Virus record (IMG/VR): IMGVR_UViG_3300037114_000074
Source of the DNA: an uncultured virus (IMG/VR IMGVR_UViG_3300037114_000074)
Lineage: Duplodnaviria > Heunggongvirae > Uroviricota > Caudoviricetes
DNA: 64,000 bases
Direction: 5' to 3' (one strand)
Shown here in pieces: positions 1,513 through 38,833 of the stretch; position 1 is the first letter of the stretch; every line of letters begins with the position of its first letter. The notes beneath the pieces are model-generated. The model was given only the letters and a program-made list of their open reading frames with translations. It made no database searches and was not told the origin of the DNA. The position numbers were made by a program, and so were the translations under genes.

Positions 1513-1516
1513 TGGT

Positions 1517-2973: not shown

Positions 2974-3017
2974 TGCAGAGTACCTCGGTTGAACGGTGGA
3001 GAAGGGATGAAGCCGGG

Positions 3018-3464: not shown

Positions 3465-3509
3465 TGAAATCTACTCCTGATTGGTTAAGCGCTGCCCGCG
3501 GCCCGCGCC

Positions 3510-4673: not shown

Positions 4674-4707
4674 TGTGATGGTCTCCTGGTTTTGAAACGG
4701 CTCGCGA

Positions 4708-5208: not shown

Positions 5209-5258
5209 GTGAAAACTTCCTCCGCGGCTGGCGCGGTGTTGAGGGAGAGGTGGGGGTG

Positions 5259-7370: not shown

Positions 7371-7371
7371 G

Positions 7372-7653: not shown

Positions 7654-7659
7654 GTCTGA

Positions 7660-7917
7660 TTACCCCGCTACGTCCGGCTGCACGTCCAGCACCGCGCTGC
7701 CCTGGATCGCGTTCGCCCAGATGGCCTGCGCGAGGCTGAACTTGACGGTGGGGTTCTCCGAGCTCAGCACCACACCGTCAATGCCCGTGGGCTGCGCGGT
7801 CTGGCACTCCACCATGACCTCGAGGCCCGCGGCGTCGGGGGAGATCAACTGCACGATCGCCGGCCCCGTGCCGATGTTCTGCCAGGTGCCGACGGTGACT
7901 GTGACGCGCTGTGCCAT
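7660..7917 (-). CDS. Hypothetical (possibly structural) protein
   Basis: 85 aa ORF with GAGGT RBS. Confidence 0.6.
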   Translation of the reverse strand: MAQRVTVTVGTWQNIGTGPAIVQLISPDAAGLEVMVECQTAQPTGIDGVVLSSENPTVKFSLAQAIWANAIQGSAVLDVQPDVAG

Positions 7918-7943
7918 TGTGTACCTCTGCTACTTGTTTCGAT

Positions 7944-8147
7944 TTACGCCACAGTCGCACCAAACGCCGTGTACACCGTGGCCGACTGCAGGCGGCGCGC
8001 GGTGACGATGCGCGGGCGCAACCCGGTGCGGTCCGCCACCAGGTAGTGCTTGTCGCCAAGGCGGCTGACGATGGTGCCGTGGAAGCAGTGCGCGCTCGTG
8101 GTGCTCGCCCACTTGACGTGCTGCCCGGCGGCGAATTTCGTACCCAC
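7944..8147 (-). CDS. Small hypothetical protein
   Basis: 67 aa GTG-start ORF abutting the portal stop. Confidence 0.45.
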   Translation of the reverse strand: MGTKFAAGQHVKWASTTSAHCFHGTIVSRLGDKHYLVADRTGLRPRIVTARRLQSATVYTAFGATVA

Positions 8148-11568: not shown

Positions 11569-11758
11569 GGGACTTCGGATTCAGGCTCTTGGTGCTCGGG
11601 CACAGCGGCGGCAGCCCAGCCTTCGCCCTCCGCCAGCTGCACAGCGCCCGGGCCGTGGGAGAAGCGTGGCCCCTGCAGTACCGGCGAGCGCGGCCGGCGT
11701 GGCCGTCAGCGGGCCGCGGCTCGACCTCGCACTCGCACTCCGGCTCCAGGCATTTCAT
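11552..11758 (-). CDS. Small Cys-rich hypothetical protein
   Basis: MKCLEPECECEV...YCRGH; ATG overlaps the terminase stop. Confidence 0.45.
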   Translation of the reverse strand: MKCLEPECECEVEPRPADGHAGRARRYCRGHASPTARALCSWRRAKAGLPPLCPSTKSLNPKSRARHP

Positions 11759-23944: not shown

Positions 23945-24701
23945 GGATTTCCCCGCTTGGGGCGCAATTATGGCCTGCCTCGAGGCGCCGTTGTTTGAGT
24001 ACAACGGGGCGCGTCGCATCTCTACCAACGTACTGTGGCAGCCCGAAAGACTTCCATGGATTACCCTTGAGCAGATGGCGCACCTCGGCTACGCACGCCC
24101 TGAGACGAAACTGAAGGCCCTTGATCGAATGTACTACAACGAGCTAGAGGCTGCTCGCGTACGAGCTCTACTGAAGAAGCGAGAGGGCCAAGCTTTCTCA
24201 GCTGTCTCCATGTCGATGCTTGCCGGAGCGAAGGATGCTCGATCGATGGGGCATTGTCTAAGTGCTATCATGCTCTCTCTAACCCCGAAACGGGCCGAAG
24301 TGACTGTAACCTACCGCTCTACTGAATTGATCAAGAAATTCTCCGCGGATCTAGCTTTCATACCTCGAGTGCTAGAGCGGATTGGCGTGATGAAACCTGA
24401 TCGCGTCTCATTTTTCTTCTCCAATTGCTTTGTATCGGGGGTGTTCTTCCCCACGCTAATGCGATACGTCGATCCGATTGAGTTTCTTGAGTTCCTGCGC
24501 AAGCGGGAGCACCCAATGTTTATCGTAGCGACGAGATTTCTGCGTCGATCGGTTCGTACTCGCGAGCAGGACTTCCCATTTTCGCCTGAGCGAATGCAGC
24601 ACGAGTTTGCCTGGAAGCACTACCCCGAGAAGATGCCACTCATCCGTCGATACTTGAAGGAACACCTCCATGGCAAGCAGCCGAAAATCAATCGCCGGTA
24701 A
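23925..24701 (+). CDS. Divergent thymidylate-synthase-fold protein A
   Basis: GHCLSAIML...VTYRSTELIKKFSADLAF mirrors the TS PC...RSxD...N region. Confidence 0.6.
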   Translation: MPLTPPKDFPAWGAIMACLEAPLFEYNGARRISTNVLWQPERLPWITLEQMAHLGYARPETKLKALDRMYYNELEAARVRALLKKREGQAFSAVSMSMLAGAKDARSMGHCLSAIMLSLTPKRAEVTVTYRSTELIKKFSADLAFIPRVLERIGVMKPDRVSFFFSNCFVSGVFFPTLMRYVDPIEFLEFLRKREHPMFIVATRFLRRSVRTREQDFPFSPERMQHEFAWKHYPEKMPLIRRYLKEHLHGKQPKINRR

Positions 24702-24957
24702 AGTTGAGTATGTCAAAGCACAAGGTCAGAGTCGATTTCACACCTGTCACTGGCCTGGATGTAAGACACAAGTCCCCCCCGCGATGTGGGGTTGTCAACT
24801 TCACTGGTTCCGGCTCCCCGCCGGTCTTCGTGCGCGCATCTGGCGAGCTTACCAACCAGGACAGGAAAGAACTCTCCAAGTTTCTGAAGCGTATCTCGAG
24901 GTTGCAAACGAAGTCCAGGAGTGGATCTCCAAACAGATTCGTCCCATCAACCGATGA
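24670..24957 (+). CDS. Cys/His-rich conserved phage protein
   Basis: HTCHWPGC..QVPPAMWGC..HWFRLP. Confidence 0.6.
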   Translation: MASSRKSIAGKVEYVKAQGQSRFHTCHWPGCKTQVPPAMWGCQLHWFRLPAGLRARIWRAYQPGQERTLQVSEAYLEVANEVQEWISKQIRPINR

Positions 24958-25040
24958 AGACCTTAAACGCTATGCTGCAGCGGGGGCGAAGAAGCGCGGG
25001 TTGAAGAGCGAGGATAAATCCGAAGCGAGGAGGCGTCGCC

Positions 25041-25265
25041 GTGCCGAAAGAAAGCGTCGAGAAAACCGCGGCTGAATTCGCAGCTGAGTTGAACCGTGAC
25101 ACCCTGATAGCTCAGGCCGTAGAGATCCGTCAGCTTCGTAGTCTCGTCGATGAAGCCAAGCGATTCATCGACGGATTCGCAGCGAGTGCCGAATCAGGTT
25201 TTACTCGCCGACGCAAGGCGCTAGAATGGATCAAACGCTACAAGGAAATTCGGGATGTACCATAA
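25041..25265 (+). CDS. Hypothetical protein
   Basis: GGAGG RBS, 74 aa. Confidence 0.55.
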   Translation: MPKESVEKTAAEFAAELNRDTLIAQAVEIRQLRSLVDEAKRFIDGFAASAESGFTRRRKALEWIKRYKEIRDVP

Positions 25266-26037
25266 CTTCGACGGAATGCTCATCAATCTGCACAAGAAGA
25301 TGAAGAACTGCTCGGTCCCAGTTCACCCTGACAAGTGGCAATCGATCGACGTCTCGAAGAAGCCCGAAGCCGAGATGCGTGAGCTCCTCAACGTCTACTT
25401 CCAGGTCGTTATTGGAACGACTGATCTTCAGAGTCATCGGCTCGACATTAAGCCCGCGCTCCCCTGGGCGGATCGCCACTTCGAACTCGAGCGCGTCAGT
25501 GGGCAGCCGATCAACCCTGGGACGACGTGGAAGGAGTGGCCCTTCGCCCACAGCGCTGATCGGTTTCGGACCGAGGGTGAGTGCTTCTCCCACACGTACG
25601 CCGAAAGGTACTGGCCAAAGATGGCCAACGCCGAGTTGCTGAATGATCTACGACCGCTTCAGGGTGTTCGCTATTTATATGGCGACCTTAAGGACGTAGT
25701 TGATCTTCTCATACGTGAGCCCTTAACGCGTCAGGCATACCTTCCTGTGTGGTTCCCGGAGGACACCGGCGTTGTCCACGGCGAACGCGTACCCTGCACG
25801 CTGGGGTACCACTTCATGCGTCGCAACGATGAGTTCTCGATTTTCTATCCAATACGCTCATGCGACTTCGTCCGGCACTTTCGTGATGATCTCTACCTGA
25901 CGGTGCGCCTGCTGCTGTGGGTTCTGAACGAACTGCGCGAGCGCGATATGGGCGTATGGAATAAAGTTCGCCCAGGAACTTTCACAATGTGGATCGGATC
26001 TCTCCATGTGTTTATAAATGACTGGAGAAAACTATGA
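25255..26037 (+). CDS. Thymidylate synthase / pyrimidine hydroxymethylase-like protein B
   Basis: EPLTRQAYLPVW, RVPCTLGYHF, IRSCDFVRHFRDD, IGSLHVF. Confidence 0.85.
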   Translation: MYHNFDGMLINLHKKMKNCSVPVHPDKWQSIDVSKKPEAEMRELLNVYFQVVIGTTDLQSHRLDIKPALPWADRHFELERVSGQPINPGTTWKEWPFAHSADRFRTEGECFSHTYAERYWPKMANAELLNDLRPLQGVRYLYGDLKDVVDLLIREPLTRQAYLPVWFPEDTGVVHGERVPCTLGYHFMRRNDEFSIFYPIRSCDFVRHFRDDLYLTVRLLLWVLNELRERDMGVWNKVRPGTFTMWIGSLHVFINDWRKL

Positions 26038-26297
26038 ATAAGAAAGCCACTACCACCTCAACTCGTGCAAAATATCTCGTCGCGAGTTTCGACGATCATC
26101 CGTATGGATACGGCTACTGTTCCCTCCTAGGACAACCTCAGCGGACTACTCGGTTGTTAGCTGAATTACCACTCCCCTCAAGGTTGGAGAATGGACTAAT
26201 GGCATTCGAGCTCAGAGACGCCGCTGATGCAGCGGGACTTCCCGGTACTCAAGTCTTCACTCGGATGCTGAAGGATCGTCAGCTCTGGAAGCTGTAA
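26034..26297 (+). CDS. Hypothetical protein
   Basis: 87 aa, coupled to neighbours. Confidence 0.45.
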   Translation: MNKKATTTSTRAKYLVASFDDHPYGYGYCSLLGQPQRTTRLLAELPLPSRLENGLMAFELRDAADAAGLPGTQVFTRMLKDRQLWKL

Positions 26298-26744
26298 ATG
26301 ACCAATCGAATCTCCCGCTACGACCTCTACTTCACGATCGCGCGAGCGGCCGCTAAGCGCTCGACGTGTCAACGTAAACACATTGGGGCTGTGATAGTTC
26401 CCCGCCGTGGAGTTCTACTGATAGGCTACAACGGCGCCCCTCAGGGCCTTCCACACTGCCTCGATGCTGGCTGCCTAATAGGCTCGGATGGAGGTTGCCT
26501 ACGCACCCAGCACGCTGAGGCCAACGTGATTGCCTGGGCCGCTCGAAACGGTATCGCTCTCGCAGGCGCTGAGATGTTTACAACAGTCAGTCCATGCCTC
26601 TCCTGCGCGAAGATGATCATCAACGCTGGGGTCGAATCGGTTTTATACCTCGAGGCATACCGTGAGGTTCAGCCTCTCGAATATCTAAAAGACGCCCGAG
26701 TACATGTAGACATTTATCACCCAGAGAAAATTGATGCCTCGTAA
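26298..26744 (+). CDS. dCMP deaminase
   Basis: RSTC..IGAVIV, GYNG, HAEAN, PCLSCAK zinc motifs. Confidence 0.92.
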   Translation: MTNRISRYDLYFTIARAAAKRSTCQRKHIGAVIVPRRGVLLIGYNGAPQGLPHCLDAGCLIGSDGGCLRTQHAEANVIAWAARNGIALAGAEMFTTVSPCLSCAKMIINAGVESVLYLEAYREVQPLEYLKDARVHVDIYHPEKIDAS

Positions 26745-29223
26745 CCCCCATTGCGAGAAGTGTGGCCTATCGAAGACGACCACTGGGAATATCTGTGTAT
26801 GGGGTGACGGGCCTCAGAACGCCGACGTGGTGATCATCGGCGAGGCCCCCGGCGAGGCCGAAGCCAGGACGGGCAAGCCATTTCAGGGGAAGTCAGGTCA
26901 GCTTTTACGAGGCGAGCTCGCCACGGCTGGCCTAACGAGTACCTACATCACCAACGTAGTGAAGTGTCGTCCCCCCCAGAATCGAGCCCCGACGCCTACC
27001 GAGATCAAAGCCTGTCGCGAATATCTCGACGACGAGTTCGCGACGATCAAGCCGAAAGCGATCTTAGCTCTGGGAGCGGTTGCCTCGAAGGCCGTACTGA
27101 AGAAGGCCAAGATCACCAGCATCCACGGTCAGATTCTCGAGAAGGACGGCGTTGTGACCTCAGCGATCTACCACCCGGCCTACTGTCTGCGCGATCCATC
27201 AAAGCTACCGGCCTTTCAGCAAGACTTGCGTCGATTCTCTGCCCACCTGCGGGGCGAGAAGCGTACCTCGACGGTCAACTGGGCGATCGTACAGCGAGAG
27301 AACTTGTCGAAGTTCATCAGCGACCTGCGGATCTGCACGGAGTTTGCGTTTGACACCGAGACCTCTGGGCTTAACTGGTTCGACCCCGAAAATCGATTTT
27401 TCCGTTGCGTCCAAATTGCAATCCAGTACCCAGGGGGCGCTGACTTTGGTTGGGTGATCCCGATGTCAATGGAGGGTTCTCCCTTCCCGACGGGCCGCCT
27501 GCAGACTCAGATCATGGACATCGTCTTCGACGAGCTCGAAGGCAAGCCGGCCTGCGCTCAGAACGGCAAGTTCGACAACCTGTGGCTTTGGGCGATCTTC
27601 CGCCGCAAGTTTCACTTGACCTTCGACACGATGCTCGCGAGTCACACGCTCAACGAGAATCAGGACCACGACCTGAAGTCCCTAGTTCGAGGAATACTCG
27701 ACGAGCCGGACTATGACATCGATCTCGCGATCAAGCGGGGCGAGGTCGTCAGTCCAATGCGACTTTACAAGTACGGTGCTTTCGATGCCGTCTATACGCT
27801 ACGCCTGAAGCACAAGTTCATGGCGCAATTCCGACGCGATGTGACACTCCGAAAATTGTTCTTCAAACTAGTGATGCCGGCCGCACGCTCCTTCCAGGAC
27901 ATCGACAGCAATGGCCTGTACGTTAATCTCGAGAGAATGGCCGAGACCGAGCTGGATGTCGCGAAACAACTCAAGCAGACGTTAGCCGAGTTAAACTCGA
28001 TGACGCCACGCCAGATCAACTGGAACTCGTCGCAGCAGGTAGCGTCCTTGCTCTACGGGGATCTGAAGCTCCCGGTAGTAGTGAAGACTGATAAGGGCGC
28101 GCCGTCTACTGGGGAAGAGGCTCTCCTCGCGATCAAAGGCAAGCACCCGATCGCCGAGAAACTCGTGAAGTACCGCGAGCTCGAGAAATTCCGCTCGACC
28201 TATCTGGACGGATGGAAAGAGTTTATGGTCGGTCCGATGCTCTACTTGTCGACCAAGTTACACGGGACCGTGACGGGTCGTTACTCGAGTCGCCTCCATC
28301 AGGTGCCACGCGACGGTACGATCCGCTCGCTAGTCGAAGCCCCTGAGGGCTGGACGTTTGTGCAGGGAGACCTCAGTCAGGCCGAGCTACGCGTGGCAGC
28401 GATTCTCTCACATGACGCTGAGTTAGTCACCTGCTATCGCCGCGGAGTGGACGTCCACTGGCGTACGCTCCTCCATCTGATAGGAAAAGGTTCAGCCGCC
28501 TCTTATGTCGACCCAGCGTGGAAGACAGCCACCGCTCTGAACGGACGCCGACGACCCTCCTCGTTAACCATCGCTCTTGAGCTTCTCATGAAGGCTGGTC
28601 CTGATCGTTGCACTGAGGTCTGGAAGGGATGGAAGGAAGCTCGTAAGACTGCGAAGGCTACCAACTTTGGATTCCTGTTCGGGATGATGGAGGCGAAGTT
28701 CATCGAGACTTGCAAATTGAAGTACGGTTTTGAGCCGACGATGAAGGAAGCTAAATCGATGCGAGAGGGTTTCTTCCAACTTTATAGACAGTTGCCTGAC
28801 TGGCACAAGAAGCAGAAACGCCTCGTCCATCTAAACGGCTACGTCCGAAACCTTGCGGGTCGTATGCGACGTCTGCCAGGGGTCCACTCTCCTGATTGGT
28901 CCCTCGCGAGCGAGTGCGAACGACAAGCGATTAACTCACCGGTGCAGGGTTACATCGGGGACCACAAGGCGATGGCAGCCATCGAAATCCATGAGACCTT
29001 CGATTGGGAGCGCGAACTTCGAATTGTTGGAGAAGTGCACGACGCTCTGCTACTATGGATACGAACCGATCGACTTCAAAAAATTCTACCGCGCGTCGCC
29101 GCCATCATGAGAGAGCCTAAGCTCGTCCGAGAATTTGGAATCAAACTCACAGTGCCGCTTGAAGCTGATCTGACGATTGGGCCGTGGGGCGCCGGGAAGA
29201 CGTGGAGAGAAACTCATGCCTGA
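26734..29223 (+). CDS. Family A DNA polymerase with N-terminal family-4 uracil-DNA glycosylase-like domain and 3'-5' exonuclease
   Basis: UDG: CEKC, GEAPG, TNVVKCRPP.NR.P, HPAY; exonuclease: FDTET, NGKFD, YGAFD; polymerase: DLSQAELR, AKATNFG, EVHD. Confidence 0.93.
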   Translation: MPRNPHCEKCGLSKTTTGNICVWGDGPQNADVVIIGEAPGEAEARTGKPFQGKSGQLLRGELATAGLTSTYITNVVKCRPPQNRAPTPTEIKACREYLDDEFATIKPKAILALGAVASKAVLKKAKITSIHGQILEKDGVVTSAIYHPAYCLRDPSKLPAFQQDLRRFSAHLRGEKRTSTVNWAIVQRENLSKFISDLRICTEFAFDTETSGLNWFDPENRFFRCVQIAIQYPGGADFGWVIPMSMEGSPFPTGRLQTQIMDIVFDELEGKPACAQNGKFDNLWLWAIFRRKFHLTFDTMLASHTLNENQDHDLKSLVRGILDEPDYDIDLAIKRGEVVSPMRLYKYGAFDAVYTLRLKHKFMAQFRRDVTLRKLFFKLVMPAARSFQDIDSNGLYVNLERMAETELDVAKQLKQTLAELNSMTPRQINWNSSQQVASLLYGDLKLPVVVKTDKGAPSTGEEALLAIKGKHPIAEKLVKYRELEKFRSTYLDGWKEFMVGPMLYLSTKLHGTVTGRYSSRLHQVPRDGTIRSLVEAPEGWTFVQGDLSQAELRVAAILSHDAELVTCYRRGVDVHWRTLLHLIGKGSAASYVDPAWKTATALNGRRRPSSLTIALELLMKAGPDRCTEVWKGWKEARKTAKATNFGFLFGMMEAKFIETCKLKYGFEPTMKEAKSMREGFFQLYRQLPDWHKKQKRLVHLNGYVRNLAGRMRRLPGVHSPDWSLASECERQAINSPVQGYIGDHKAMAAIEIHETFDWERELRIVGEVHDALLLWIRTDRLQKILPRVAAIMREPKLVREFGIKLTVPLEADLTIGPWGAGKTWRETHA

Positions 29224-29458
29224 CTTAGAACGTGGTCTCTACCCGAAGTTCATTGTTCACCGAACCGATCGTGAAGACGGCGAAGGACGACGGCATTACG
29301 ACTGCGAGTACTTCGTACTCGACGTGAATCATGACCCGCATGCGAAGGCGGCGATCAAAGCCTACGCTGAGTCGTGTCGAGCTGAGTACCCTGCGTTAGC
29401 TGCAGACCTCGACCTGATGCTCACGAGGTGTCGATTCACTCGAGACTGGGAGAAGTAG
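29216..29458 (+). CDS. Conserved small phage protein
   Basis: MPDLERGLYPKFIVHRTD...YFVLDVNHDPHAKAA..AYA. Confidence 0.65.
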   Translation: MPDLERGLYPKFIVHRTDREDGEGRRHYDCEYFVLDVNHDPHAKAAIKAYAESCRAEYPALAADLDLMLTRCRFTRDWEK

Positions 29459-29459
29459 A

Positions 29460-30440
29460 ATGCTCATCGTCGGTTTCTCTCGCATCCGAGCTTGGCGTCG
29501 ATGCCACAGACTCTACTGGTACCGATACATCCTGTGCTTGGAGCGAAAGCGCCCGAAGGTCCAGTTAATCCGCGGGACGATCCTCCACGCGATGCTCGAC
29601 GCGAAGGCTAAGGGCAAAAACCCAGCCTCGGTGCTGCGTCAGTACGCCAAGGAATACGGTAAGCTCTTCCGTGAGGAGCGCGATGAGTATGGAGATTTAA
29701 TTGGCGATTGCAAAAAGCTCTTCGACAACTACCAGCGACACTACGCTGACGACGGCTACAAGATCCTCGAGTCTGAGTACGAGGTACAGGTCCCACTTCT
29801 GAAAGAGGTGACCTTCCAGGGGCACATCGACAAGGTCGTCCTGGATCCGCAGAAGCGCCGTTGGATCAAGGATCATAAGAGCCACAAGAACATCCCAGGA
29901 GAGGAAGCGCGATTCTCCGATCTGCAGACGGTGTTCTACACATGGGCGTGGAACAAGTTAAATCCACGCCGCCCAGTTGACGGCATCATCTGGGACTACA
30001 TCCGCACCAAGCTGCCGGTCGAGCCCGAAGTCCTGAAGTCGGGGCAGCTCTCGCAGCGGGCGAACATCGACACTACGTATGACGTCGCCTTAGCGGCTGT
30101 ACAGGCCCACTGCAAGCGAACTGGCGAGGACCAGCAGCACTATACTGAATGGCTCGAAGGACTGAAAGGGCGCGAGGAGAAGTTCCTGAGGCGAGTGTAC
30201 CTCCCGAGTCCGCCGAGAGTAATGGTTGATCAAATCGTTAGCGAGATGGTAACGACCTCTCAGGAGATCTTACGATCGCACGACGATACGACCCGCAATA
30301 TGACGAAGGACTGCTCGTGGTGCTCGTTCTACAATCTGTGCCACGCCGAGCTCCGAGGTCAGGACTCCGACTTCATCCGCAAGACCGAATACGTAGTCAA
30401 CCAGGAGATGCTTGATGGCGATCAAGAAGAGGAAGAGTAA
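29460..30440 (+). CDS. PD-(D/E)XK exonuclease (RecB/Cas4-like)
   Basis: C..LYWY, GTILH, GHIDKV, IKDHKS, QTVFY, CSWCSFYNLC. Confidence 0.85.
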   Translation: MLIVGFSRIRAWRRCHRLYWYRYILCLERKRPKVQLIRGTILHAMLDAKAKGKNPASVLRQYAKEYGKLFREERDEYGDLIGDCKKLFDNYQRHYADDGYKILESEYEVQVPLLKEVTFQGHIDKVVLDPQKRRWIKDHKSHKNIPGEEARFSDLQTVFYTWAWNKLNPRRPVDGIIWDYIRTKLPVEPEVLKSGQLSQRANIDTTYDVALAAVQAHCKRTGEDQQHYTEWLEGLKGREEKFLRRVYLPSPPRVMVDQIVSEMVTTSQEILRSHDDTTRNMTKDCSWCSFYNLCHAELRGQDSDFIRKTEYVVNQEMLDGDQEEEE

Positions 30441-31230
30441 CCCGACTCAATTCGGGGACATCAAGTCGAAGATCGCGCCCGTCAGTGAACTGGCGAGTGA
30501 GTTCTCGAGTTTGATTTACGGGCGCAGTGGAACTGGCAAGACTGCGGTGTCGTCGAGTTGGCCGAAGCCAATGCTGCTCGTCGACATCCGTGAAAAAGGT
30601 ACCGACACCATCGCGAAGGTTCCTGGCATCGATGTCATCTCGATCGAAGAATGGGCCGAGATAGAGCAGGTCTACTGGTACTTGAAGTCGAACGAGTCAA
30701 AGTACAAAACGGTCTCGATCGATCAGATTTCCCAGATGCAAGACCTGGCGATGGCTGAGATCAAGGGGACCGGTAAAGAGGAGAGCGACATTCTCTCGCG
30801 ACGCGACTGGGGTCAGATCGCCGGTCTGATGAAAACCTGGCTCTACAATTATCGAGACCTGACGAACTCCGGGATCTACGTGGTCTTCATCGCTCACGAA
30901 CGCACGAACAGCGCCGACGAGAGCGTAGAGGACCAGATCGATCCGTCGATCGGAGCTCGCCTGATGCCGTCGCTTGCCTCGGCGGTCAACGGTGCGGTCT
31001 CAGTGATCGGCAACACTTTCATCCGTGAGGAGTACACAGGTCAGGGGAAGGACAAGGAGCGCGCAGTGAAGTACTGCATGCGCATCGGGCCACACGCGTA
31101 CTACACGACGAAGATCCGACGTCCAATTGACTTCGTCGCCCCTGAGTTTATCGTCAATCCGACGTTTGACAAGATCACCAAGATCATTCGTGGTGAGAGA
31201 TCCGAGCCAAAACGAAAAGTTCATAAGTGA
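30415..31230 (+). CDS. AAA_24 / Sak4-like ATPase
   Basis: IYGRSGTGKT, TVSIDQIS, VVFIAHE. Confidence 0.85.
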   Translation: MAIKKRKSNPTQFGDIKSKIAPVSELASEFSSLIYGRSGTGKTAVSSSWPKPMLLVDIREKGTDTIAKVPGIDVISIEEWAEIEQVYWYLKSNESKYKTVSIDQISQMQDLAMAEIKGTGKEESDILSRRDWGQIAGLMKTWLYNYRDLTNSGIYVVFIAHERTNSADESVEDQIDPSIGARLMPSLASAVNGAVSVIGNTFIREEYTGQGKDKERAVKYCMRIGPHAYYTTKIRRPIDFVAPEFIVNPTFDKITKIIRGERSEPKRKVHK

Positions 31231-31242
31231 AGGAGTAGATCA

Positions 31243-31872
31243 ATGGCGATTAGAAAAGGTGGAAAGAAGAAGGGACTGTCTGTCGACTTCTCTGGCGTCG
31301 AGTCCGGGGGGAAGGCCGTACCCGACGGCGCCTACGAGGTCGAGGTCGTCGAGGTCACTGAGGAGGAAGGTGCCGATAGCGGCAACCCCTATCTGAAGTG
31401 GAAGTTCCGTATTACCGAGGGGGACTCGAAGGGCGCCGCCCTGTACGACAACACCTCGTTGCAGCCGCAGGCCCTCTGGCGGTTGAAGGGACTCCTCGAG
31501 GTCCTGGGTGTCGAGGTTCCCGATAGCTCGATGGAGTTGGACCTCGCCGAGTACACGGGCCAGACGCTGACCGTCACCGTAGTGAACGAGGAGTTCCAGG
31601 GGCGCGACCGTCCGAAGGTGGATTCCTACGGCGGCGATGCCGATAAGTCGTCTCGCAGTGGTAAGACGACTAAGAAGAAGACGCCCACCAAGGATGATGA
31701 CGACGACGACGACGACGACGACGAATTTAAGAAAGGCGACCTCGTTCAGTTCGAGGACGAGGGCAAGAAACTGAAGGGCAAGGTCGTCTCGGTCGACGGG
31801 GATACCGCGACCGTCGAAACGAGCGACGGGGAAGAGTGGGAAATCGAAGCGAGTGACCTGAAGAAGTTGTGA
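31243..31872 (+). CDS. DUF669-like single-stranded DNA-binding protein
   Basis: VPDGAYEVEV..SGNPYLKWKF..ALWRLK; poly-Asp tract; AAGGAG RBS. Confidence 0.8.
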   Translation: MAIRKGGKKKGLSVDFSGVESGGKAVPDGAYEVEVVEVTEEEGADSGNPYLKWKFRITEGDSKGAALYDNTSLQPQALWRLKGLLEVLGVEVPDSSMELDLAEYTGQTLTVTVVNEEFQGRDRPKVDSYGGDADKSSRSGKTTKKKTPTKDDDDDDDDDDEFKKGDLVQFEDEGKKLKGKVVSVDGDTATVETSDGEEWEIEASDLKKL

Positions 31873-33212
31873 TCCGAAAGCAACTTCGGCCGAACCAGGC
31901 CGAAGCCGTCCAGCGGTGGAAAGATCGACTCGCTGACGGCTTCGGCCTTTTCGATGAGCAGCGCGTCGGGAAGAACCTTCCCGCCCTCGCGATTGTCGAT
32001 CACGAGAAACCCGCCCGCCTACTGATTATCACTCTCAAGAAAGGGATCAAAGTCTGGCAGAAGGAGATCGCCGAGAGCTTAGCGCTCGACTGGCCATGTG
32101 AAATCCAGATCATCAACTTCAACCAGGTCGAGCGTAAGTCGACCTTCCGCAAGTTGAAGCTCTGGCTCGCGGGCGACACTTCCTTTATGATCGTCGATGA
32201 GGCGCAGCACATCAAGCGTCGAGGATCGAAGTGGTCCAGGCGTTGTCGCCTGATCGGGCGCAAGGCGGATCATCGACTCGCCCTGACTGGGACCCCGATT
32301 GCTCAGGGGATCTGGGACGCCTGGGCGATCTTCGACTACCTCGGCCCGAGCATCTTCGGTAAGTGGGCGATCACCCAAAAGAAACTCCGACCCGGGCAGC
32401 GGCCGATCATTCAGGTGGTGAGTGGTTTTCAGCATCGCTACCTGCTGATGGACCCCTTCTGGCGGTCGAAGGTGATTGGCACGCAAAACGAGGAGGAGTT
32501 CTATCAGGTCTTCCACGCCCATTCGATTCGCCACACGCTAGCTGAGGTGCGCAGACGCGCTGGACTGAAACCCGCGCGTATCCGTCGAGTAGTCCTGACT
32601 GAGCCTCTTAGTGACGCTGAGCGGCGCTCGTACATAGAGCTCGAGAAGGAGCTCGTGACCGTCGTTAATCGGCGGCGCATTGAGACCCCCCTTGCTATGA
32701 CCCTGACGATGAAGCTCCAGCAGATCTGTGGAGGCTTCGTTATCGACGAGGACGGAGTAGTCCACGAGCTCGGCAACACGAAACTCAGACTCCTTCTGCT
32801 GGCGCTGGGGCGCCTGACGAAGAAAGACCGACCCCTCGTGATCTGTCGCTTCCTGCACGAGCTCGAAGCGATCGCGCGAGTCCTAGACTTCGCAGGCTAC
32901 TCAGTCAAGCGCATTCAGGGAGGCATCGACTTCGATCCAAACGAGAAGATCAAGGAGACCGCGATCGTACTACAAATCCAATCGGGAGTAGCGATCGATC
33001 TAGCCATAGCGAACGTCGCGATCTTCTACTCCTGGGATTTCAGCTATATCAACCATGAGCAGAGCCGCTTTCGGATTTTGCAGTACATCTCAACGAGGGT
33101 GTCATATTATTACCTCGTTATGAAGGGGACCATCGACGAACTGATTCTCGAGGCGGTCCTGAGAAAGAAGAGACTCGCAGATCTTGTCTGCGATCACTAC
33201 AGGAGACGATGA
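31869..33212 (+). CDS. SNF2-like SF2 helicase
   Basis: IVDEAQHIK, LALTGTP, KLQQICGGF, GTIDE. Confidence 0.85.
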   Translation: MIRKQLRPNQAEAVQRWKDRLADGFGLFDEQRVGKNLPALAIVDHEKPARLLIITLKKGIKVWQKEIAESLALDWPCEIQIINFNQVERKSTFRKLKLWLAGDTSFMIVDEAQHIKRRGSKWSRRCRLIGRKADHRLALTGTPIAQGIWDAWAIFDYLGPSIFGKWAITQKKLRPGQRPIIQVVSGFQHRYLLMDPFWRSKVIGTQNEEEFYQVFHAHSIRHTLAEVRRRAGLKPARIRRVVLTEPLSDAERRSYIELEKELVTVVNRRRIETPLAMTLTMKLQQICGGFVIDEDGVVHELGNTKLRLLLLALGRLTKKDRPLVICRFLHELEAIARVLDFAGYSVKRIQGGIDFDPNEKIKETAIVLQIQSGVAIDLAIANVAIFYSWDFSYINHEQSRFRILQYISTRVSYYYLVMKGTIDELILEAVLRKKRLADLVCDHYRRR

Positions 33213-33529
33213 TGGAAGCCGAAGAGACCAACCCTGACGATTTGAAGAAAGACATGTCTGATTTGAAAACAGAGGAGAAAGATCCAGTGGCAACAAAAAA
33301 GAAACCCGTCCGTAAGGTGAAGGCGAAGACGACGGCAGCGAAGAGCAACGGCGCAGATCCAAATCAGGTCACCCTGAAGCAGCTCTGCAAGGACCATAAG
33401 ATGGAGCCTCGCATCGCGCGACGCAAGCTCCGTGCAGCTGGTCTGAAGCCTGAGGGTCGTTGGTCCTGGGGGAAAGGTACCCCCGCGTTGAGGAAGGCCG
33501 AGACTGCGCTGGCAGCCAGTGACGACTGA
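33209..33529 (+). CDS. Small basic putative DNA-binding protein
   Basis: TLKQLCKDHKMEPRIARRKLR. Confidence 0.65.
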   Translation: MMEAEETNPDDLKKDMSDLKTEEKDPVATKKKPVRKVKAKTTAAKSNGADPNQVTLKQLCKDHKMEPRIARRKLRAAGLKPEGRWSWGKGTPALRKAETALAASDD

Positions 33530-33941
33530 GGCTCGATTCTGGTCGAGATTGAAGGGGAAGCTCGGCCCGGGCGACTTCGTCCGGGTCGAGAACCCCTGCG
33601 ACCCTGGGACTCCAGACGTCAATTTCCATGCTCAGGGGCGTGAGGGATGGATGGAATTGAAGTTCCGTCGGAAGCCAACGCGCCCATCCACGATCGTTCT
33701 GACCGACAAGCATGGACTGCGCCCTGCGCAGAAACTTTGGATTCGCCGGCGCACAAAGGTCGGTGGTCTGGTGTTGATCGTCGTCGGCATCGGCGACTAC
33801 GTTTACCTCGTCCCGGGTCGATACGCCGCTGTAATCAACGACTGGACACTTCTCGACTTCCTAAGGTCTGAGATTCCTACAGCGCAACGACGCGATCCGA
33901 GTCAGGTCAGGAAGGCCCTCCGCCAGGCGGTTTATCGATGA
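33519..33941 (+). CDS. VRR-NUC/Holliday junction resolvase-like nuclease
   Basis: RVEN..PGTPD..WMELK..LRPAQKLW. Confidence 0.8.
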   Translation: MTTEARFWSRLKGKLGPGDFVRVENPCDPGTPDVNFHAQGREGWMELKFRRKPTRPSTIVLTDKHGLRPAQKLWIRRRTKVGGLVLIVVGIGDYVYLVPGRYAAVINDWTLLDFLRSEIPTAQRRDPSQVRKALRQAVYR

Positions 33942-34459
33942 CCTTTTCCATCAACCGATTGACCTCGATACAACGTGAGCTTCTCGAGAAGAAACTTTGG
34001 ACTCGAGTTGAAAAGACCTCAACCTGCTGGCTTTGGAAAGGAGCAAGGAATAAGCGAAGAGGAATCGCAGGATCAGGAGTGATCGGTACTGGTCTATTGA
34101 AGCCCTCTGGCCACCAGATACCAACTTTGGTCCATAGACTCTCGTATGAGCTGACTCATGGCCCTATTCCACGGGGACTCCTCGTCCTCCACGGGTGTGA
34201 TATTCGGAATTGCGTTCGACCGGGACATCTTCACTTAGGAACTGCGACTCAGAATGCCGCTGAGTGTAACCGAAGGAATCGACGCCCCGTGGGCTCCCAG
34301 GTAAAATCATCGAAACTCACCGAGGTAGACGTGGCCCAGATCAGGGGACTCCACGCCACGAATCAACGGACAATCACTCAATTGAGTCGGGACTACGGAA
34401 TGACCTACGCGGCCGTCCGTGGAATCATCCGACGCAAGAACTGGAAGCACGTCGAATAA
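33938..34459 (+). CDS. HNH homing endonuclease with C-terminal HTH
   Basis: CWLWKG, VHRLSYEL, VLHGCD.RNCVRPGHL.LGT..QN, SKLTE. Confidence 0.9.
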   Translation: MTFSINRLTSIQRELLEKKLWTRVEKTSTCWLWKGARNKRRGIAGSGVIGTGLLKPSGHQIPTLVHRLSYELTHGPIPRGLLVLHGCDIRNCVRPGHLHLGTATQNAAECNRRNRRPVGSQVKSSKLTEVDVAQIRGLHATNQRTITQLSRDYGMTYAAVRGIIRRKNWKHVE

Positions 34460-34530
34460 AATCCTCGTTTTTGCCGGCAAATACGCAATTCGCCTCGCGC
34501 AACACGTTGATTTAATTCCCTATTTACCTA

Positions 34531-34559
34531 TTTACATGTCAATGGGAAGAGCTTACTAT
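34531..34559 (+). promoter_or_regulatory. Sigma70-type early promoter
   Basis: TTTACA (34531-36), 17-nt spacer, TACTAT (34554-59), AT-rich upstream region. Confidence 0.75.
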
Positions 34560-34740
34560 GTACACGTCAAGGAAGACAAGGCAGGGTAGGCCCAGGACTT
34601 TCTGACGAACACTCTCCCGGGGAAACGAGCTCGGGTCACGATCAGAAAACGAACCTTCAACTACCTCGACTGACCACGATTCAGGTCCCGGGCTGGCCGT
34701 CTCCAAAACAAAAATAGCAGCGGCATCCAATCCCGGTAAA

Positions 34741-34829
34741 GACGAAACGATCGATGCGCGTTGCGCGTAACAGCTTCAGGCTGTCGTCGATCGTATACGC
34801 GCGGGTGGCTCCCGCCGTACTGACGAGTC
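34741..34829 (+). ncRNA. Type II hammerhead ribozyme 1
   Basis: gac-GAAA-cgatcga...tcgatcg-UA-tacg..cgta-CUGACGA-gtc; all three stems pair; GUA cleavage predicted after 34795. Confidence 0.85.
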
Positions 34830-34860
34830 AAGCCCAATCCCAAAACTGGAGGAATCCGAA

Positions 34861-35223
34861 ATGACCACGTTCAAAAAAGAGTTCACGATGCCTAATGGCA
34901 CGAAGTACACCCTCTCTCAGCAGTCTGACATGCCAGTACTGATGAGCCTAGGAGAATTGAAGATGAGCAAACAGATCACACCCCGGTCACTCGAACTTTT
35001 CCTCGCTTACGCACGCGACGCCGGAAACTGGCGCGGCACACCGCTGATCGGTGGGAACGTGGGCGGCAGCAAAGAGGACCGTGGCAACTTGACGCAGTTG
35101 AAGCGCGCCGGTTTGGTCACGTCATTTGACGACGGCGAAGGTTGCCAATGGCTGCAGTTCACCGACGCAGGCAAGGCGCTCGCCATTCAGCATGGCGTTG
35201 ACGGCGCGGAGTTTGTGTCATGA
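34861..35223 (+). CDS. Early hypothetical protein (second RBS and ATG at 34963)
   Basis: GGAGG RBS before 34861; AGGAG before the in-frame MSKQITPR. Confidence 0.65.
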   Translation: MTTFKKEFTMPNGTKYTLSQQSDMPVLMSLGELKMSKQITPRSLELFLAYARDAGNWRGTPLIGGNVGGSKEDRGNLTQLKRAGLVTSFDDGEGCQWLQFTDAGKALAIQHGVDGAEFVS

Positions 35224-35525
35224 GCCTCGTAATCAAAGCCACGGAAGCCGACCGCGTTGATTACCAAAAGACCGGGCCAGTTTATCCGCTTTACGGGTGG
35301 GCCACGTTGGACGGCCAACGCATGGCCATTGAGGATGTGGCCCGAAGGATTGAAATTCATAGAACGCAAAACCGTTGCACTCTGAAACAGAAGGACAAAA
35401 CAGCATGATTGACGAAGACGCTCACGGCGAACAAACCGCACAAGCGGAACGGCAGACCCGCAACGAGCTGGTGAACTTCATCAATTCGCTGCGGGCCCAC
35501 CTGCAAACCCTGGGAGTGAACTCCG

Positions 35526-36056
35526 ATGGAAGCAAGCGTTAAGTACATCCAGACAGTCGATCCCGTAACTGACCTGACCAACTCTGGGCTCAAACCTGCG
35601 CTCTGCCTACGGGGGCGCAAGTTCGCCTCCTGCGTGATCAATGACGAAGGGACGATCCGCATCCTGCGCGTCGAGCTCAGACACTACGACAAGATGCGCG
35701 TGGTCCCCCACAAAGGCAAAGCGTACGAACCGAAGGCCTGCGCGAAGTACTTCATGTCCTTGCTCGATCGCGAGCAGATACGCCGTACGGCGACGCAAGG
35801 CGCGATCGAGTTGATCAAGCGAGTCCTCGACGGGAACGTACCGACCGAGGACATCGAGTTCATCGAAACGCCAGTCCATTCTGAGACGCCCCCCGAGGAG
35901 AAGGCGAACGGCGCGTCTGCGTCGCACTCGACGATCCTGGGGGCAATCTGCAACGAGCTGAAGATCGAGCCAACAGCTGCACGCCGCAAGCTACGCAAGG
36001 CCGGCCTTCACGCACCCTACGATAACGAAGCTGCGATCCGAGGAGCCCTGAAGTAA
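35526..36056 (+). CDS. Hypothetical protein with C-terminal putative DNA-binding motif
   Basis: GGAG RBS; ICNELKIEPTAARRKLRKAG. Confidence 0.7.
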   Translation: MEASVKYIQTVDPVTDLTNSGLKPALCLRGRKFASCVINDEGTIRILRVELRHYDKMRVVPHKGKAYEPKACAKYFMSLLDREQIRRTATQGAIELIKRVLDGNVPTEDIEFIETPVHSETPPEEKANGASASHSTILGAICNELKIEPTAARRKLRKAGLHAPYDNEAAIRGALK

Positions 36057-36113
36057 GGTCGAAACGTCGCAGGGATGGCGACGTCCGCTAGTGATGCTGG
36101 CGCTGATGAGACC
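36057..36113 (+). ncRNA. Type II hammerhead ribozyme 2
   Basis: ggtc-GAAA-cgtcgc/gcgacg-UC-cgctag/ctggcg-CUGAUGA-gacc; GUC cleavage predicted after 36085. Confidence 0.92.
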
Positions 36114-36136
36114 AAATTAACCGAGGAGAATCCAAA

Positions 36137-36811
36137 ATGTCCACGCCATTAGAAGAGTTCCAGGGAGCGCGCAAGACCGCCGAAATGGTATCATCCCTGC
36201 GTCAGCTGTACGCCAACGGACGCATCCCCGAGTCTGACAAGAACTTCATCAACTCTCTCCTGAGAGCTGCCGATAACCGTGGCCTGTCGATCAAGCAGGC
36301 TGCTTGGGTAGACAAGCTCGTCGATCGATTCACGCGTCCCCCTGCGTCGGCGCAGACGCCGGTTCAGCTCTCAGGTATGTCGGGCGTCGTCGCGCTGCTG
36401 ACGAAGGCACGTGAGAACGGCCTGAAGTTCCCGAAGCTCTGGCTGAAGCTCCCCCTCGGCGACGATCTGCGGATCACAATCGCGGGCGAACGCTCGAAGA
36501 CCCCCGGCTTCCTCGTCCTGACAGACGGCGAAGCGTTCGGGAGCAACCGCTACTACGGTCGCATCTCGCCGGACGGGCAGCTGACGATTGGCAAGGATGG
36601 CCACGTCTGCGAGACCAACCTCGTCGAACTGCTGATGCGGCTTGGTCAGGATCCGGCGCGCGTTGCTGCTGAGTTCGGGCACTTGACCGGCCACTGCTGC
36701 TTCTGCTCGTTGCAGCTAACCGATGAGCGCTCGACTGTCGTCGGATATGGACGAATCTGCGCTGGCAAGTTCGGTCTGCCTTGGGGCAAATCTGGGGAGC
36801 AGTCACCATGA
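36137..36811 (+). CDS. Protein with C-terminal DUF6011-like zinc-binding domain
   Basis: GHCCFCSLQLTDERS..GYGRICA; GAGGAG RBS. Confidence 0.75.
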   Translation: MSTPLEEFQGARKTAEMVSSLRQLYANGRIPESDKNFINSLLRAADNRGLSIKQAAWVDKLVDRFTRPPASAQTPVQLSGMSGVVALLTKARENGLKFPKLWLKLPLGDDLRITIAGERSKTPGFLVLTDGEAFGSNRYYGRISPDGQLTIGKDGHVCETNLVELLMRLGQDPARVAAEFGHLTGHCCFCSLQLTDERSTVVGYGRICAGKFGLPWGKSGEQSP

Positions 36812-37134
36812 TCGTCCAGGCTATCCCGTGTCCCTGCGGCTGCGCTAAGTGGATGGTGACCCCGCTCTTCGGGCACGTCGAGTCGTCCCTCAGTAGAGAA
36901 GAGGCCGATGAGCTGGTACGTCGATGGAATCACTTCGAGGAGAAACCTGAGCGGTGGTCTCAGAGCGTGAAGGATCAGGCCTACAAGCTCGATCCTGAAT
37001 GCTGGGTGAGTTACTCAGGGAAGACGCGGCCCTACAAGCAGGCGATGGAAGTTCGTCGCAAGGCCTCACTCGAAGCTGCTGCGCGACTGTTGGGACGATC
37101 CTCGGTATCACTTCTGAAGAAACAAGCTGAGTAG
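36808..37134 (+). CDS. Hypothetical protein
   Basis: MIVQAIPCPCGC..., ATG overlaps the upstream stop. Confidence 0.6.
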   Translation: MIVQAIPCPCGCAKWMVTPLFGHVESSLSREEADELVRRWNHFEEKPERWSQSVKDQAYKLDPECWVSYSGKTRPYKQAMEVRRKASLEAAARLLGRSSVSLLKKQAE

Positions 37135-37190
37135 GTCGAAACGCGGCAGGGACGCTGCGTCTGGGCGTGATTCGCCCCACTGATGAGACC
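37134..37190 (+). ncRNA. Type II hammerhead ribozyme 3
   Basis: ggtc-GAAA-cgcggc/gctgcg-UC-tgggcg/cgcccca-CUGAUGA-gacc; GUC cleavage predicted after 37161. Confidence 0.92.
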
Positions 37191-37212
37191 ACACACAAAG
37201 TAGGAGATTGAA

Positions 37213-38028
37213 ATGACCCGATCCACAACCATGGCTCGTTTCCCGTCGATCACGGACCCGAAGGGTCTCTCGATGGACGAGCTTAAGAAATTCCCGTCGC
37301 TGTTCGCAACGGCCCCCCACCCGAAGATGTCTGAGCGTTACACCTTCCTCTCGACGGCTGACGTGATCGAGCCGCTTCTGAAGGACGGCTACGCCATCAC
37401 GCATGTTGCGCAGCGTGCGACTCGCTTTGGCCATCGCGATCCTCGCTTCACGCGTCACTTGGTTCGCATGCGCCGCCTTAAGGACAAGCCGATCGTCGGC
37501 GACGTCTTCCCGGAGGTGCACCTCGAGAACAGCCACGACGGCCAGTCGCGCCACCGCCTGTTCGGGGGACTCCTGCGTCTCGCCTGCTTAAACGGCATGG
37601 CCATCTCGACAATGGCGTTCAAGGGTATTGCGCTGATCCACCGCGGCAACCTTGAGGAGATGCTGAAGCAGATTCGCGAGGCGGTCACGCAGGCCGCATC
37701 CGCGGCGCAGTTCGTCGAGAAGATGGCAGCGAAGAAGCTGACCCCGGCGGCACAGCTGCGCTTCGCGCAGAAGGCCGCTGAAATCGTTTTCGACAATGTC
37801 GACTTCGATGCGAAGTTGCTGTTGGTCCCGCGTCGTGAGCAGGACAAGACGAACGATCTCTGGACCACTTATAACGTCGTCCAGGAGAATCTCGTCCGAG
37901 GCGGGGTTCAGATTCAGCACACGACCGGTCAGCAGCGAGCAGCGACGACGCGTGGCATCACGCACATCCGTCGTGAGCTCGATACCAACCTGGCCCTCTG
38001 GCAGCTCGCCTCGCGAGTGGCAGCCTGA
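37213..38028 (+). CDS. DUF932/DUF945 family protein
   Basis: SERYTFLST, HLVRMR, NSHDGQS, RLACLNG, LWTTYNVVQEN. Confidence 0.85.
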   Translation: MTRSTTMARFPSITDPKGLSMDELKKFPSLFATAPHPKMSERYTFLSTADVIEPLLKDGYAITHVAQRATRFGHRDPRFTRHLVRMRRLKDKPIVGDVFPEVHLENSHDGQSRHRLFGGLLRLACLNGMAISTMAFKGIALIHRGNLEEMLKQIREAVTQAASAAQFVEKMAAKKLTPAAQLRFAQKAAEIVFDNVDFDAKLLLVPRREQDKTNDLWTTYNVVQENLVRGGVQIQHTTGQQRAATTRGITHIRRELDTNLALWQLASRVAA

Positions 38029-38053
38029 CGCACACACAACTCTAAGGAGAAGG

Positions 38054-38494
38054 ATGATGGGTTACAGACAGGCCGCACAAGAGTGCAGCATCGCTGACGC
38101 AGTTTCGACTGCGTTTGGTATGTTAGAGGAGCTCGCGAGCGAATGCCGCGAGATTGTCGATAACGCCTCAGAAGGACTGGCTCAGACTCAGCGTATCCAG
38201 ACGCTCGAGCAGACCGCATCAAGCCTGGAAAACCTGAGTGAGCCAAGCGTCCCTGAGAAGTTCGTCGAGATTCAGGTGAAGTACGACTGGGCAACTAAGT
38301 CACGCGGGGTATCGCGCGCTGTTCGATGCAGCAACGCAGTCAGCGCCCTACAGGCCGTGGTTGGGGCCTGTGAGGAACGACTGGAGAACAAATCGGAGAA
38401 CGGGGACCTCGAGGAGATCGAGACCCTGCGCGACGAGTGTCAGGGTGCGATCGACGAGGCCGAGGGATGCGAGTTCCCCGGGATGTACGGATGA
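38054..38494 (+). CDS. Acidic hypothetical protein
   Basis: TAAGGAG RBS; ends EFPGMYG. Confidence 0.7.
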   Translation: MMGYRQAAQECSIADAVSTAFGMLEELASECREIVDNASEGLAQTQRIQTLEQTASSLENLSEPSVPEKFVEIQVKYDWATKSRGVSRAVRCSNAVSALQAVVGACEERLENKSENGDLEEIETLRDECQGAIDEAEGCEFPGMYG

Positions 38495-38833
38495 ACACTA
38501 CACCAAATCACCTCTCGCGGCGATTCATGATTCACGTCTGCAAGGACGGCACCATTACTTACCGCGACACCTCGACCAGGGAGCACGTGTTCAACGGCAT
38601 AGCGCTGCCGGTGTTCTCGGTGGACACCGTGGCGCAGGCGCAAGCACTCCAGGTGCGGTTCGGACGGTTGGCTCACGAGGAGCACCCGCTGATGCCGGGG
38701 AAAGTCTTGGTACCGGTTAAGCACGCTCGGTGGGGGGGAGCTCTTGCTCCGGTCGTTGGAGCTGGAGGACTTGGACCAGGTGACGGCGTTGTTTCGAGGT
38801 TGGTACAAGCAGGAGGAGAGCCATTATGCTTGA
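38491..38833 (+). pseudogene. Hypothetical gene apparently frameshifted (+1) at GGGGAAAG near 38700
   Basis: The +1 frame after 38704 reads SWYRLSTLGGGELLLRSLELEDLDQVTALFRGWYKQ and ends overlapping the next ATG. Confidence 0.45.

Follow-up and report, generated by a model that had tools for sequence, protein, structure and literature searches.

Why does a tailed phage carry three hammerhead-like RNA elements in close succession between the genes of one module, and do these elements act as ribozymes that cut the message in which they lie? This question is raised by a 64,000-nucleotide stretch of DNA from an uncultured member of the Caudoviricetes (IMG/VR record IMGVR_UViG_3300037114_000074; the whole stretch is referred to as the window), in which the three elements (referred to as HH1, HH2 and HH3) occur within 2.45 kb on the + strand, which is also the gene strand. 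All three are genuine type II hammerheads. Judged by their spacing and by the blocks of approximately four and two open reading frames (ORFs) that they bound, they form a clustered phage array of the kind known from prophages. It is moreover likely, in our estimation, that they are cleavage-competent and segment the + strand message of the non-structural module of this phage.

A strict descriptor of the fold was applied to both strands of the window. It asks for CUGANGA, GAAA and UH, for 3 or more bp in stem II with a Watson-Crick first pair, and for 4 or more uninterrupted bp in each of stems I and III, and it returned exactly HH1, HH2 and HH3. The same descriptor gave 0 matches in 200 dinucleotide-preserving shuffles of the window. 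The matches fell on the very + strand coordinates at which an earlier reading made from the letters of this DNA (referred to as the sequence-only reading) had claimed type II hammerheads with a full core, and our independent reading of the core arrived at the same three cleavage sites (Table 1). In each element, the conserved catalytic core (C3 U4 G5 A6 N7 G8 A9, G12 A13 A14, A15.1-U16.1, and a non-G base at H17) was complete. The core-adjacent pairs were standard as well, with a G-C pair at 10.1-11.1 throughout and a stem I that opens with U-A in HH1 and HH3 and with C-G in HH2. The topology was that of type II at all three sites, with loops closing stems I and III and an open stem II through which the 5′ and 3′ ends exit.

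From 5′ to 3′, HH2 reads GGUC / GAAA / CGUCGC-AGGGAUG-GCGACG / U-C / CGCUAG-UGAUG-CUGGCG / CUGAUGA / GACC, and HH3 reads GGUC / GAAA / CGCGGC-AGGGAC-GCUGCG / U-C / UGGGCG-UGAUU-CGCC(C)CA / CUGAUGA / GACC. For each of these two in isolation, the minimum-energy fold was the three-way hammerhead junction. They have the letters AGGGA (loop III) and UGAU (loop I) in common, and 6 of their 12 stem I and stem III pairs differ on both sides with all of them still paired, which bears out the loop likeness and compensatory stem changes that the sequence-only reading had remarked upon. Because both carry AGGGA, which was found in the stem III region of only 1 of 143 other instances of their subfamily (introduced below), HH2 and HH3 are most likely paralogues of each other. 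The strand order of HH1 is GAC / GAAA / stem III (CGAUCGA...UCGAUCG, with an insert) / U-A / stem I / CUGACGA / GUC, with GUA as cleavage triplet and UGGCU as loop I of stem I. Its 7-bp stem III is branched, with a 32-nt insert of two hairpins (GCGC-GUU-GCGC and ACAGC-UUCAG-GCUGU) in window 34749-34792.

The type II family of Rfam (RF02276, Hammerhead_II) matched all three elements over its full model in an E-value scan of 33500-38500, with 28.7 bits for HH2 (E = 0.008), 24.6 bits for HH3 (E = 0.098) and 23.8 bits for HH1 (E = 0.16), and HH1 obtained an E-value of 2.5e-4 in a one-family scan of a 34-kb twin record. An all-family scan of the whole window listed HH2 and HH1 (the latter with E = 2), plus two weak unrelated matches, and no other ribozyme family matched the window at E-values up to 10. 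HH2 and HH3 were further scored with a covariance model (R1) built from an alignment (A1) of 110 other phage hammerheads, from which both had been left out. They reached 63.9 bits (E = 2.7e-17) and 55.6 bits (E = 8.9e-15), respectively, and R1 detected no copies beyond these two in the window. These scores make HH2 and HH3 unexceptional members of a phage subfamily that is very abundant (referred to as GGUC/GACC). HH1 scored only 7.6 bits on R1 because it represents a different subtype (with a GAC/GUC stem II and a CUGACGA core), and it is not a member of this subfamily.

The extent of the GGUC/GACC subfamily was charted with a scan for exact matches to the strands of stem II and of the core that HH2 and HH3 have in common (GGUCGAAAC...CUGAUGAGACC), which found at least 128 stretches on viral contigs and at least 120 stretches in bacterial genomes and metagenome-assembled genomes of many phyla. 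Among the matches listed, 17 of 73 viral contigs carried 2 to 8 exact pattern matches (hand count). One 43-kb viral contig (loci L079-L081) held 8 exact hammerheads within approximately 3.6 kb, or about one per small gene, and is thus far denser than the window. Subfamily statistics were drawn from the viral loci among the matches listed, which comprise 143 instances that are distinct with their flanks and 136 distinct ribozyme sequences; A1 consists of 110 instances of 50-58 nt. In A1, the pairs of stem II and two pairs of stem III are invariant because the search pattern fixed them. Under the hammerhead structure, 98.7% of the cells of A1 were paired, and this pairing fell to 30-45% when partners were slid by 1-3 columns. 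Changes on both sides of a pair affected 499 cells, as compared to 158 +/- 11 in shuffles.

Members of the subfamily have the form A-GGUC-GAAA-C...GUC, followed by a stem I of 6 bp, whose 5-nt loop has U as its first base (108 of 110 copies), and by CUGAUGA-GACC-A, and they sit between a stop codon and a ribosome-binding site (RBS). When frames of 40 or more codons are counted, 115 of 138 testable copies start between -3 and +15 nt from the point where an upstream frame stops (12.9% for random positions in the same loci), with most gaps measuring -1 to +3 nt. On the downstream side, 117 of 135 copies have a Shine-Dalgarno sequence and the beginning of such a frame within 80 nt (median 20 nt; 33% for random positions), and the spacer after the ribozyme is A/C-rich (46% A and 24% C in its first 9 nt). 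HH2 and HH3 conform to this layout: the gap is 0 for HH2 and -1 for HH3, and the downstream gene starts at +23 and +22, respectively. An A precedes GGUC in 142 of 143 copies; of the 85 copies in which no stop codon provides that base, 84 still have it. GACC is followed by A in 118 of 143. Because these flanking A residues are conserved, the ribozyme extends by one more base on each side, with stop codons often supplying the A on the 5′ side.

The stop codon ends at -1 or overlaps the first stem II G in 58 of the 143 copies. For HH2, the TAA stop codon (36054-36056) of ORF 35526-36056 abuts the ribozyme and its last base is the conserved A at -1, and for HH3 the TAG stop codon (37132-37134) of ORF 36808-37134 supplies both the A at -1 and the first stem II G, so that both elements indeed begin at the preceding stop codon as the sequence-only reading had it. 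Since the ribozyme is fused to the upstream stop codon, a terminating ribosome would cover stem II and the GAAA strand. This might in turn mean that upstream translation gates the ribozyme and that cleavage occurs only on ribosome-free message, a variant that we consider unlikely. If true, ribozymes of the GGUC/GACC subfamily would be sensors that couple mRNA segmentation to translation, and not constitutive scissors.

As judged by Pfam matches of its ORFs, the window is phage throughout. Its - strand arms hold the portal, cement, baseplate J, baseplate hub and DUF3383 genes, and the + strand just upstream of the ribozymes holds genes for DNA polymerase A, a PD-(D/E)XK nuclease, AAA_24, DUF669, SNF2 and HNH proteins. 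The ribozymes thus follow the replication genes within a non-structural + strand module, which the sequence-only reading took to be the early operon. Beyond them lie small genes whose products have domains of unknown function (DUF6011 and DUF932). HH1 is located in a 400-nt gap after the HNH endonuclease gene, with no gene end directly before it, and starts approximately 180 nt downstream of a putative promoter in the same gap and ends 31 nt ahead of a start codon. The block between HH1 and HH2 (referred to as block A) consists of four overlapping or abutting ORFs up to 36056, the last of which is ORF 35526-36056. In the block between HH2 and HH3, the DUF6011 gene is followed by ORF 36808-37134 with an ATGA overlap. 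Inside the blocks, ORFs share 4-17 nt with their neighbours. Sizeable gaps occur only twice, of 80 nt at HH2 and 78 nt at HH3, and no terminator-like site was found on the + strand in 33800-38200.

Table 1. Coordinates of the ribozymes and of the putative expression signals around them in the window
Feature	Position	Strand	Predicted cut	Evidence
Putative sigma-70-type promoter, TTTACA-17 nt-TACTAT	34531-34559	+		9/12 consensus matches
HH1, type II hammerhead	34741-34829 (to 34834 with tail AGCC)	+	between 34795 and 34796	sequence reading, descriptor, RF02276
GGAGG RBS and ATG of the first gene of block A (34861-35223)	34848-34863	+		sequence, ORFs
HH2, type II hammerhead, GGUC/GACC subfamily	36057-36113 (36056-36114 with the conserved flanking A on each side)	+	between 36085 and 36086	sequence, R1, fold, descriptor
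GAGGAG RBS and ATG of the DUF6011 gene (36137-36811)	36123-36139	+		sequence, ORFs, Pfam
HH3, type II hammerhead, GGUC/GACC subfamily	37134-37190 (37133-37191 with one flanking base on each side)	+	between 37161 and 37162	sequence, R1, fold, descriptor
AGGAG RBS and ATG of the DUF932 gene (37213-38028)	37202-37215	+		sequence, ORFs, Pfam

The G+C content of the window was 0.66-0.69 in the left structural arm (window 1-12000) and 0.55-0.57 in the replication and ribozyme module (24000-36000), with third-position values of approximately 0.9 and 0.5-0.75, respectively, under crude ORF picking. This large contrast within one phage genome suggests that the modules are of different origin.

In the proposed working of the array, one + strand transcript would be made, on which each ribozyme would fold during synthesis and cut after H17 (34795, 36085 and 37161). 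The cut at HH1 would remove the leader made from the promoter region, and the cuts at HH2 and HH3 would divide the rest into three pieces: 34796-36085 with approximately four genes, 36086-37161 with two, and the DUF932 gene together with the sequence after it. Hammerhead cleavage leaves 5′-OH and 2′,3′-cyclic phosphate ends. Each upstream piece would thus retain its stop codon plus 27-29 nt and end in the stem III hairpin with the cyclic phosphate, and in each downstream piece the 5′-OH would sit right at the stem I hairpin, with a short spacer rich in A and C between this hairpin and an exposed RBS. The predicted products start at a stem I hairpin and finish at a stem III hairpin. The blocks would thereby become independent mRNAs with hairpin-capped ends and defined leaders, and their stability and translation would be uncoupled. 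We infer self-cleavage at HH1-HH3 from the conformity of their cores and from published assays on like arrays, and we likewise infer the co-transcription of the blocks and every consequence downstream of it.

The early genes of T7 provide a functional likeness, not one of family: RNase III cuts their intercistronic RNA structures, turning a polycistronic transcript into several stable mRNAs with hairpin ends. In T7 it is the host RNase III that cuts, leaving 5′-phosphate and 3′-OH ends, whereas in the phage studied here the RNA itself would cut and leave 5′-OH and 2′,3′-cyclic phosphate ends.

Protein-free cutting of transcripts is the standard published hypothesis for such arrays and is not new. 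Perreault et al. (2011; PMC3088659), who described the first natural type II hammerheads and their pseudoknot, reported that clusters of prophage hammerheads flank single genes or short gene blocks and that the flanked genes vary, and they proposed a processing of long phage transcripts to operon- or gene-length mRNAs. That work also tested tandem prophage arrangements of three bacteria for cleavage while they were transcribed in vitro (PMC3088659). The sequence-only reading, which spoke of isolated phage examples, understated this earlier knowledge, as clustered prophage arrays, mRNA processing and circles already figure in that paper (PMC3088659). Like the arrays of Perreault et al. (PMC3088659), the array of the window comprises several hammerheads within a few kb, on the gene strand and in gaps between varied genes, with the same proposed role. 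It differs from them in belonging to an uncultured peat and permafrost phage known here from sequence alone and in lying among other genes (DUF6011 and DUF932).

In Desulfovibrio vulgaris, cyPhyRNA-seq showed in vivo cleavage of three type II hammerheads, at least one of which has phage genes next to it (PMC8782182). They resemble HH1-HH3 in type and in their phage-gene neighbourhood, but as described in that study they occupy three separate places in the genome and form no array (PMC8782182). A 2019 review repeats the processing hypothesis and describes other self-cleaving classes, such as twister, adjoining the same kinds of phage-associated genes (PMC6765202), so that these classes have the phage gene neighbourhood and the question of purpose in common with the hammerheads. 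Hits in DNA bacteriophages were left aside in a 2026 paper on the grounds that they had been described before (PMC13725137). Nothing further that resolves the function of hammerheads in phages was found in our literature search, which left subscription journals outside its scope.

The position of the ribozymes relative to the downstream genes also accommodates another role. Between the end of the ribozyme and the Shine-Dalgarno sequence lie 18 nt for HH1 (GGAGG), 9 nt for HH2 (GAGGAG) and 11 nt for HH3 (AGGAG), with an ATG after each, close to the 10-20 nt before a strong RBS that the sequence-only reading had given. The ribozymes might thus cut but mainly serve to set translation, either as insulators that provide a fixed 5′ leader, comparable to the synthetic RiboJ, or as switches that free a masked RBS. 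This proximity of 9-18 nt to a strong Shine-Dalgarno sequence at each site and the A/C-rich spacers of the subfamily are both in favour of such a role. However, the predicted probability of the segment from Shine-Dalgarno to AUG being unpaired was about unchanged by cleavage (0.49-0.56 uncleaved versus 0.58 cleaved for HH1, 0.58-0.68 versus 0.64 for HH2, and 0.43-0.57 versus 0.55 for HH3), and no extended stem II reaching the Shine-Dalgarno sequence was seen in the window. Because predicted accessibility is the same before and after the cut, a translation switch activated by cleavage is not indicated. The insulator version cannot be told apart from message segmentation by sequence analysis, and taken together we regard a mainly translational role as improbable.

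The ends that cleavage would leave bear on yet another fate of the pieces, namely that those between two cuts are joined into circular mRNAs by an RtcB-type ligase or by the reverse ribozyme reaction. The end chemistry would suit RtcB, and the same possibility was raised by Perreault et al. (PMC3088659), who nonetheless state that they detected neither circular nor spliced products (data not shown there). Among the window ORFs, no Pfam match to RtcB or another RNA ligase was found (13 ORFs at E 0.01; 67 at 1e-5), leaving the RtcB ligation put forward in the sequence-only reading without support. No joints were seen in the sequencing runs either, although their cover is too thin to count. We therefore deem circularisation highly improbable.

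Several results weigh against the segmentation of the message by HH1-HH3, and those that concern the ribozymes themselves are given first. Although HH1-HH3 are like RF02276 in core, topology and helix lengths, all three score under its gathering threshold of 37 bits, and at gathering thresholds no Rfam family matched anywhere in the window. In the search with the Rfam type II model that the sequence-only reading had recommended as a check, the three thus came up only under an E-value threshold. The gathering score is a cut-off set for a single model and no property of the structure. This also means that the Rfam gathering score misses real hammerhead copies and that automatic annotation overlooks HH1-HH3. 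Stem I of HH3 further contains one bulged C. In the minimum-energy fold of HH1, stems I and III are present but the 3-bp stem II (GAC/GUC) is absent. Lastly, a scan for the pattern of the HH1 subtype returned 48 viral stretches (40 distinct sequences, some of them false), none of which had the branched stem III, so that HH1 has no close relatives for comparison. In most of these matches, the GTA of the pattern sits in loop I of a GUC-cleaving hammerhead, and approximately 5 look by eye like stemless coding sequence.

These traits of HH1 (the missing stem II, the lack of relatives with a branched stem III, and its 23.8 bits on RF02276 with an E-value of 2 in the all-family scan) are also what would be expected if one or more of the three, most likely HH1, were an inactive relic or a chance look-alike. 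Such an origin is hardly credible given that the descriptor had no match in any of the shuffles and that the core of HH1 is complete. Moreover, HH1 shares the strand of the genes, occupies the one long intergenic gap and precedes a start codon by 31 nt. Its 3′ tail AGCC (34831-34834) is complementary to GGCU of loop I over 4 bp, the tail AGCC...AA equals the RF02276 consensus tail letter for letter, and the letters of loop I follow the family consensus as well. This predicted pairing of tail and loop I fits the published type II pseudoknot (PMC3088659). According to the same paper, a stem II of as few as two pairs is common in type II hammerheads (PMC3088659).

For HH2 and HH3, no comparable pseudoknot emerged, which likewise counts against segmentation. 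Perreault et al. report a pseudoknot of at least 4 bp between loop I and the 3′ tail in the majority of type II examples, without it being obligatory (PMC3088659). Across the GGUC/GACC subfamily, the best helix between loop I and tail averaged 2.65 bp, as compared to 2.64 bp with permuted tails, and helices of at least 4 bp were present in 18 of 110 copies where 19.4 were expected. The mutual information in A1 for such a pseudoknot was not above the null either. HH2 can form 4 bp (including a G-U pair) and HH3 3 bp, neither of which beats the chance level of the subfamily, so that both differ in this respect from most type II examples of Perreault et al. (PMC3088659). Because this pseudoknot is not above chance, the cleavage speed of HH2 and HH3 at cellular Mg2+ concentrations is uncertain. 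It is possible that another tertiary contact takes the place of the published one in this subfamily.

In 18 of the 110 subfamily copies, GACC is directly followed by a tail AUCAG, which is the exact complement of the core strand CUGAU. This tail could fold back on the core as a competing or post-cleavage hairpin. It is absent from HH1, HH2 and HH3.

The other weak points concern the transcript. The sigma-70 promoter that the sequence-only reading had placed at 34531, upstream of all three ribozymes, is in place as a 9/12 match but does not stand out from shuffles: 2 promoter-like sites occur in 4.4 kb, as compared to 1.1 +/- 1.2 in shuffled sequence, making it plausible but not significant alone. 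The contigs of metatranscriptome run X19 that match the locus (34601-34736; 34981-35195; 35151-35185, with 5 differences; and 35264-35424) fall in the leader and the first two ORFs, outside all ribozymes, and give no verdict on cleavage. Finally, a 5′-OH end can destabilise RNA in hosts with RNase J, as in the case of glmS, and the direction of any effect of cleavage on stability therefore depends on the RNases of the host.

The X19 contig over the leader is 167 nt long, matches 34601-34736 exactly, and ends 5 nt before HH1 and not at the predicted cut. The letters that flank this match on both sides presumably stem from an Illumina adapter, and the contig would then be a short 136-nt cDNA insert whose ends are fixed; at a depth of 3.5, the contig may represent copies of one fragment. 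The leader 34601-34736 folded no better than its shuffles (z-score of -0.01). A hammerhead-like stretch in the leader (CUGACGA...GAAAC, near 34602-34630) was considered and rejected, as no stem II hairpin is possible and no model matched it. Because three other runs contained no sequence variants over the region, no population-level covariation was usable.

The nearest record was a single IMG/VR contig, whose sequence over the region is the same (100% identity) and hence not independent, and it was also the only record retrieved when viral contigs were searched with the DUF6011 and DUF932 proteins. A blastn search of 34400-38100 against cultured phages gave no match, and tblastn with the DUF932 protein against cultured phages gave 27 records, all under 60% identity (best 33% among the 25 listed), and offered no syntenic counterpart for comparison. 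Metagenomes carrying DNA of the phage came from peat, permafrost and freshwater. In one peat metagenome (run X8, record 19), a 206-nt DNA contig matches the 3′ half of HH2 (36078-36116) with 5 differences. Its flanks differ from the window, with another GGUCGAAAC start upstream and another RBS and ATG downstream, and it is a related hammerhead in a different phage of like habitat.

The DUF6011 protein had relatives at four metagenomic loci (58, 37, 51 and 34% identity, two of the loci being short or partial), and neither R1 nor Rfam found a hammerhead in the 11,096 bases of these loci. This again speaks against the proposed segmentation. Because these four relatives lack a hammerhead, the ribozymes are not tied to DUF6011-type genes, in agreement with the inconstancy of the flanked genes reported by Perreault et al. 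(PMC3088659). One of the loci scanned (L186) carries a cobalamin riboswitch at 2635-2834 (RF00174, 94.6 bits). This locus is probably bacterial and its DUF6011 match (34% over 56 residues) unrelated.

Such loose association with particular genes is what one would expect if the motifs marked or promoted the shuffling of gene cassettes, with the conserved core strands of 9-11 nt, common to thousands of phages, serving as microhomology, the ribozyme, RBS and gene forming a portable unit, and cleavage being secondary. The flanked genes are not constant (PMC3088659), the DUF6011 relatives lack ribozymes, and the exact core strands recur in the many viral and bacterial stretches described above. However, the strong covariation preserves RNA helices, which a role at the level of DNA does not need, and the invariant catalytic core and the strand specificity indicate an RNA function, so that we hold this explanation to be very unlikely. 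Segmentation of the + strand message by cleavage at HH1-HH3 thus remains our preferred reading.

Arrays such as this one matter because phage DNA holds thousands of hammerheads whose biological purpose, according to the 2019 review, needs more work to be defined (PMC6765202). The window contributes a further clean three-copy example without establishing any new principle. For the GGUC/GACC subfamily, the numbers obtained here on how the ribozyme is fused to the stop codon, on its constant spacing from the RBS, on the invariant flanking A and on the missing pseudoknot signal may be of use for the design of experiments.

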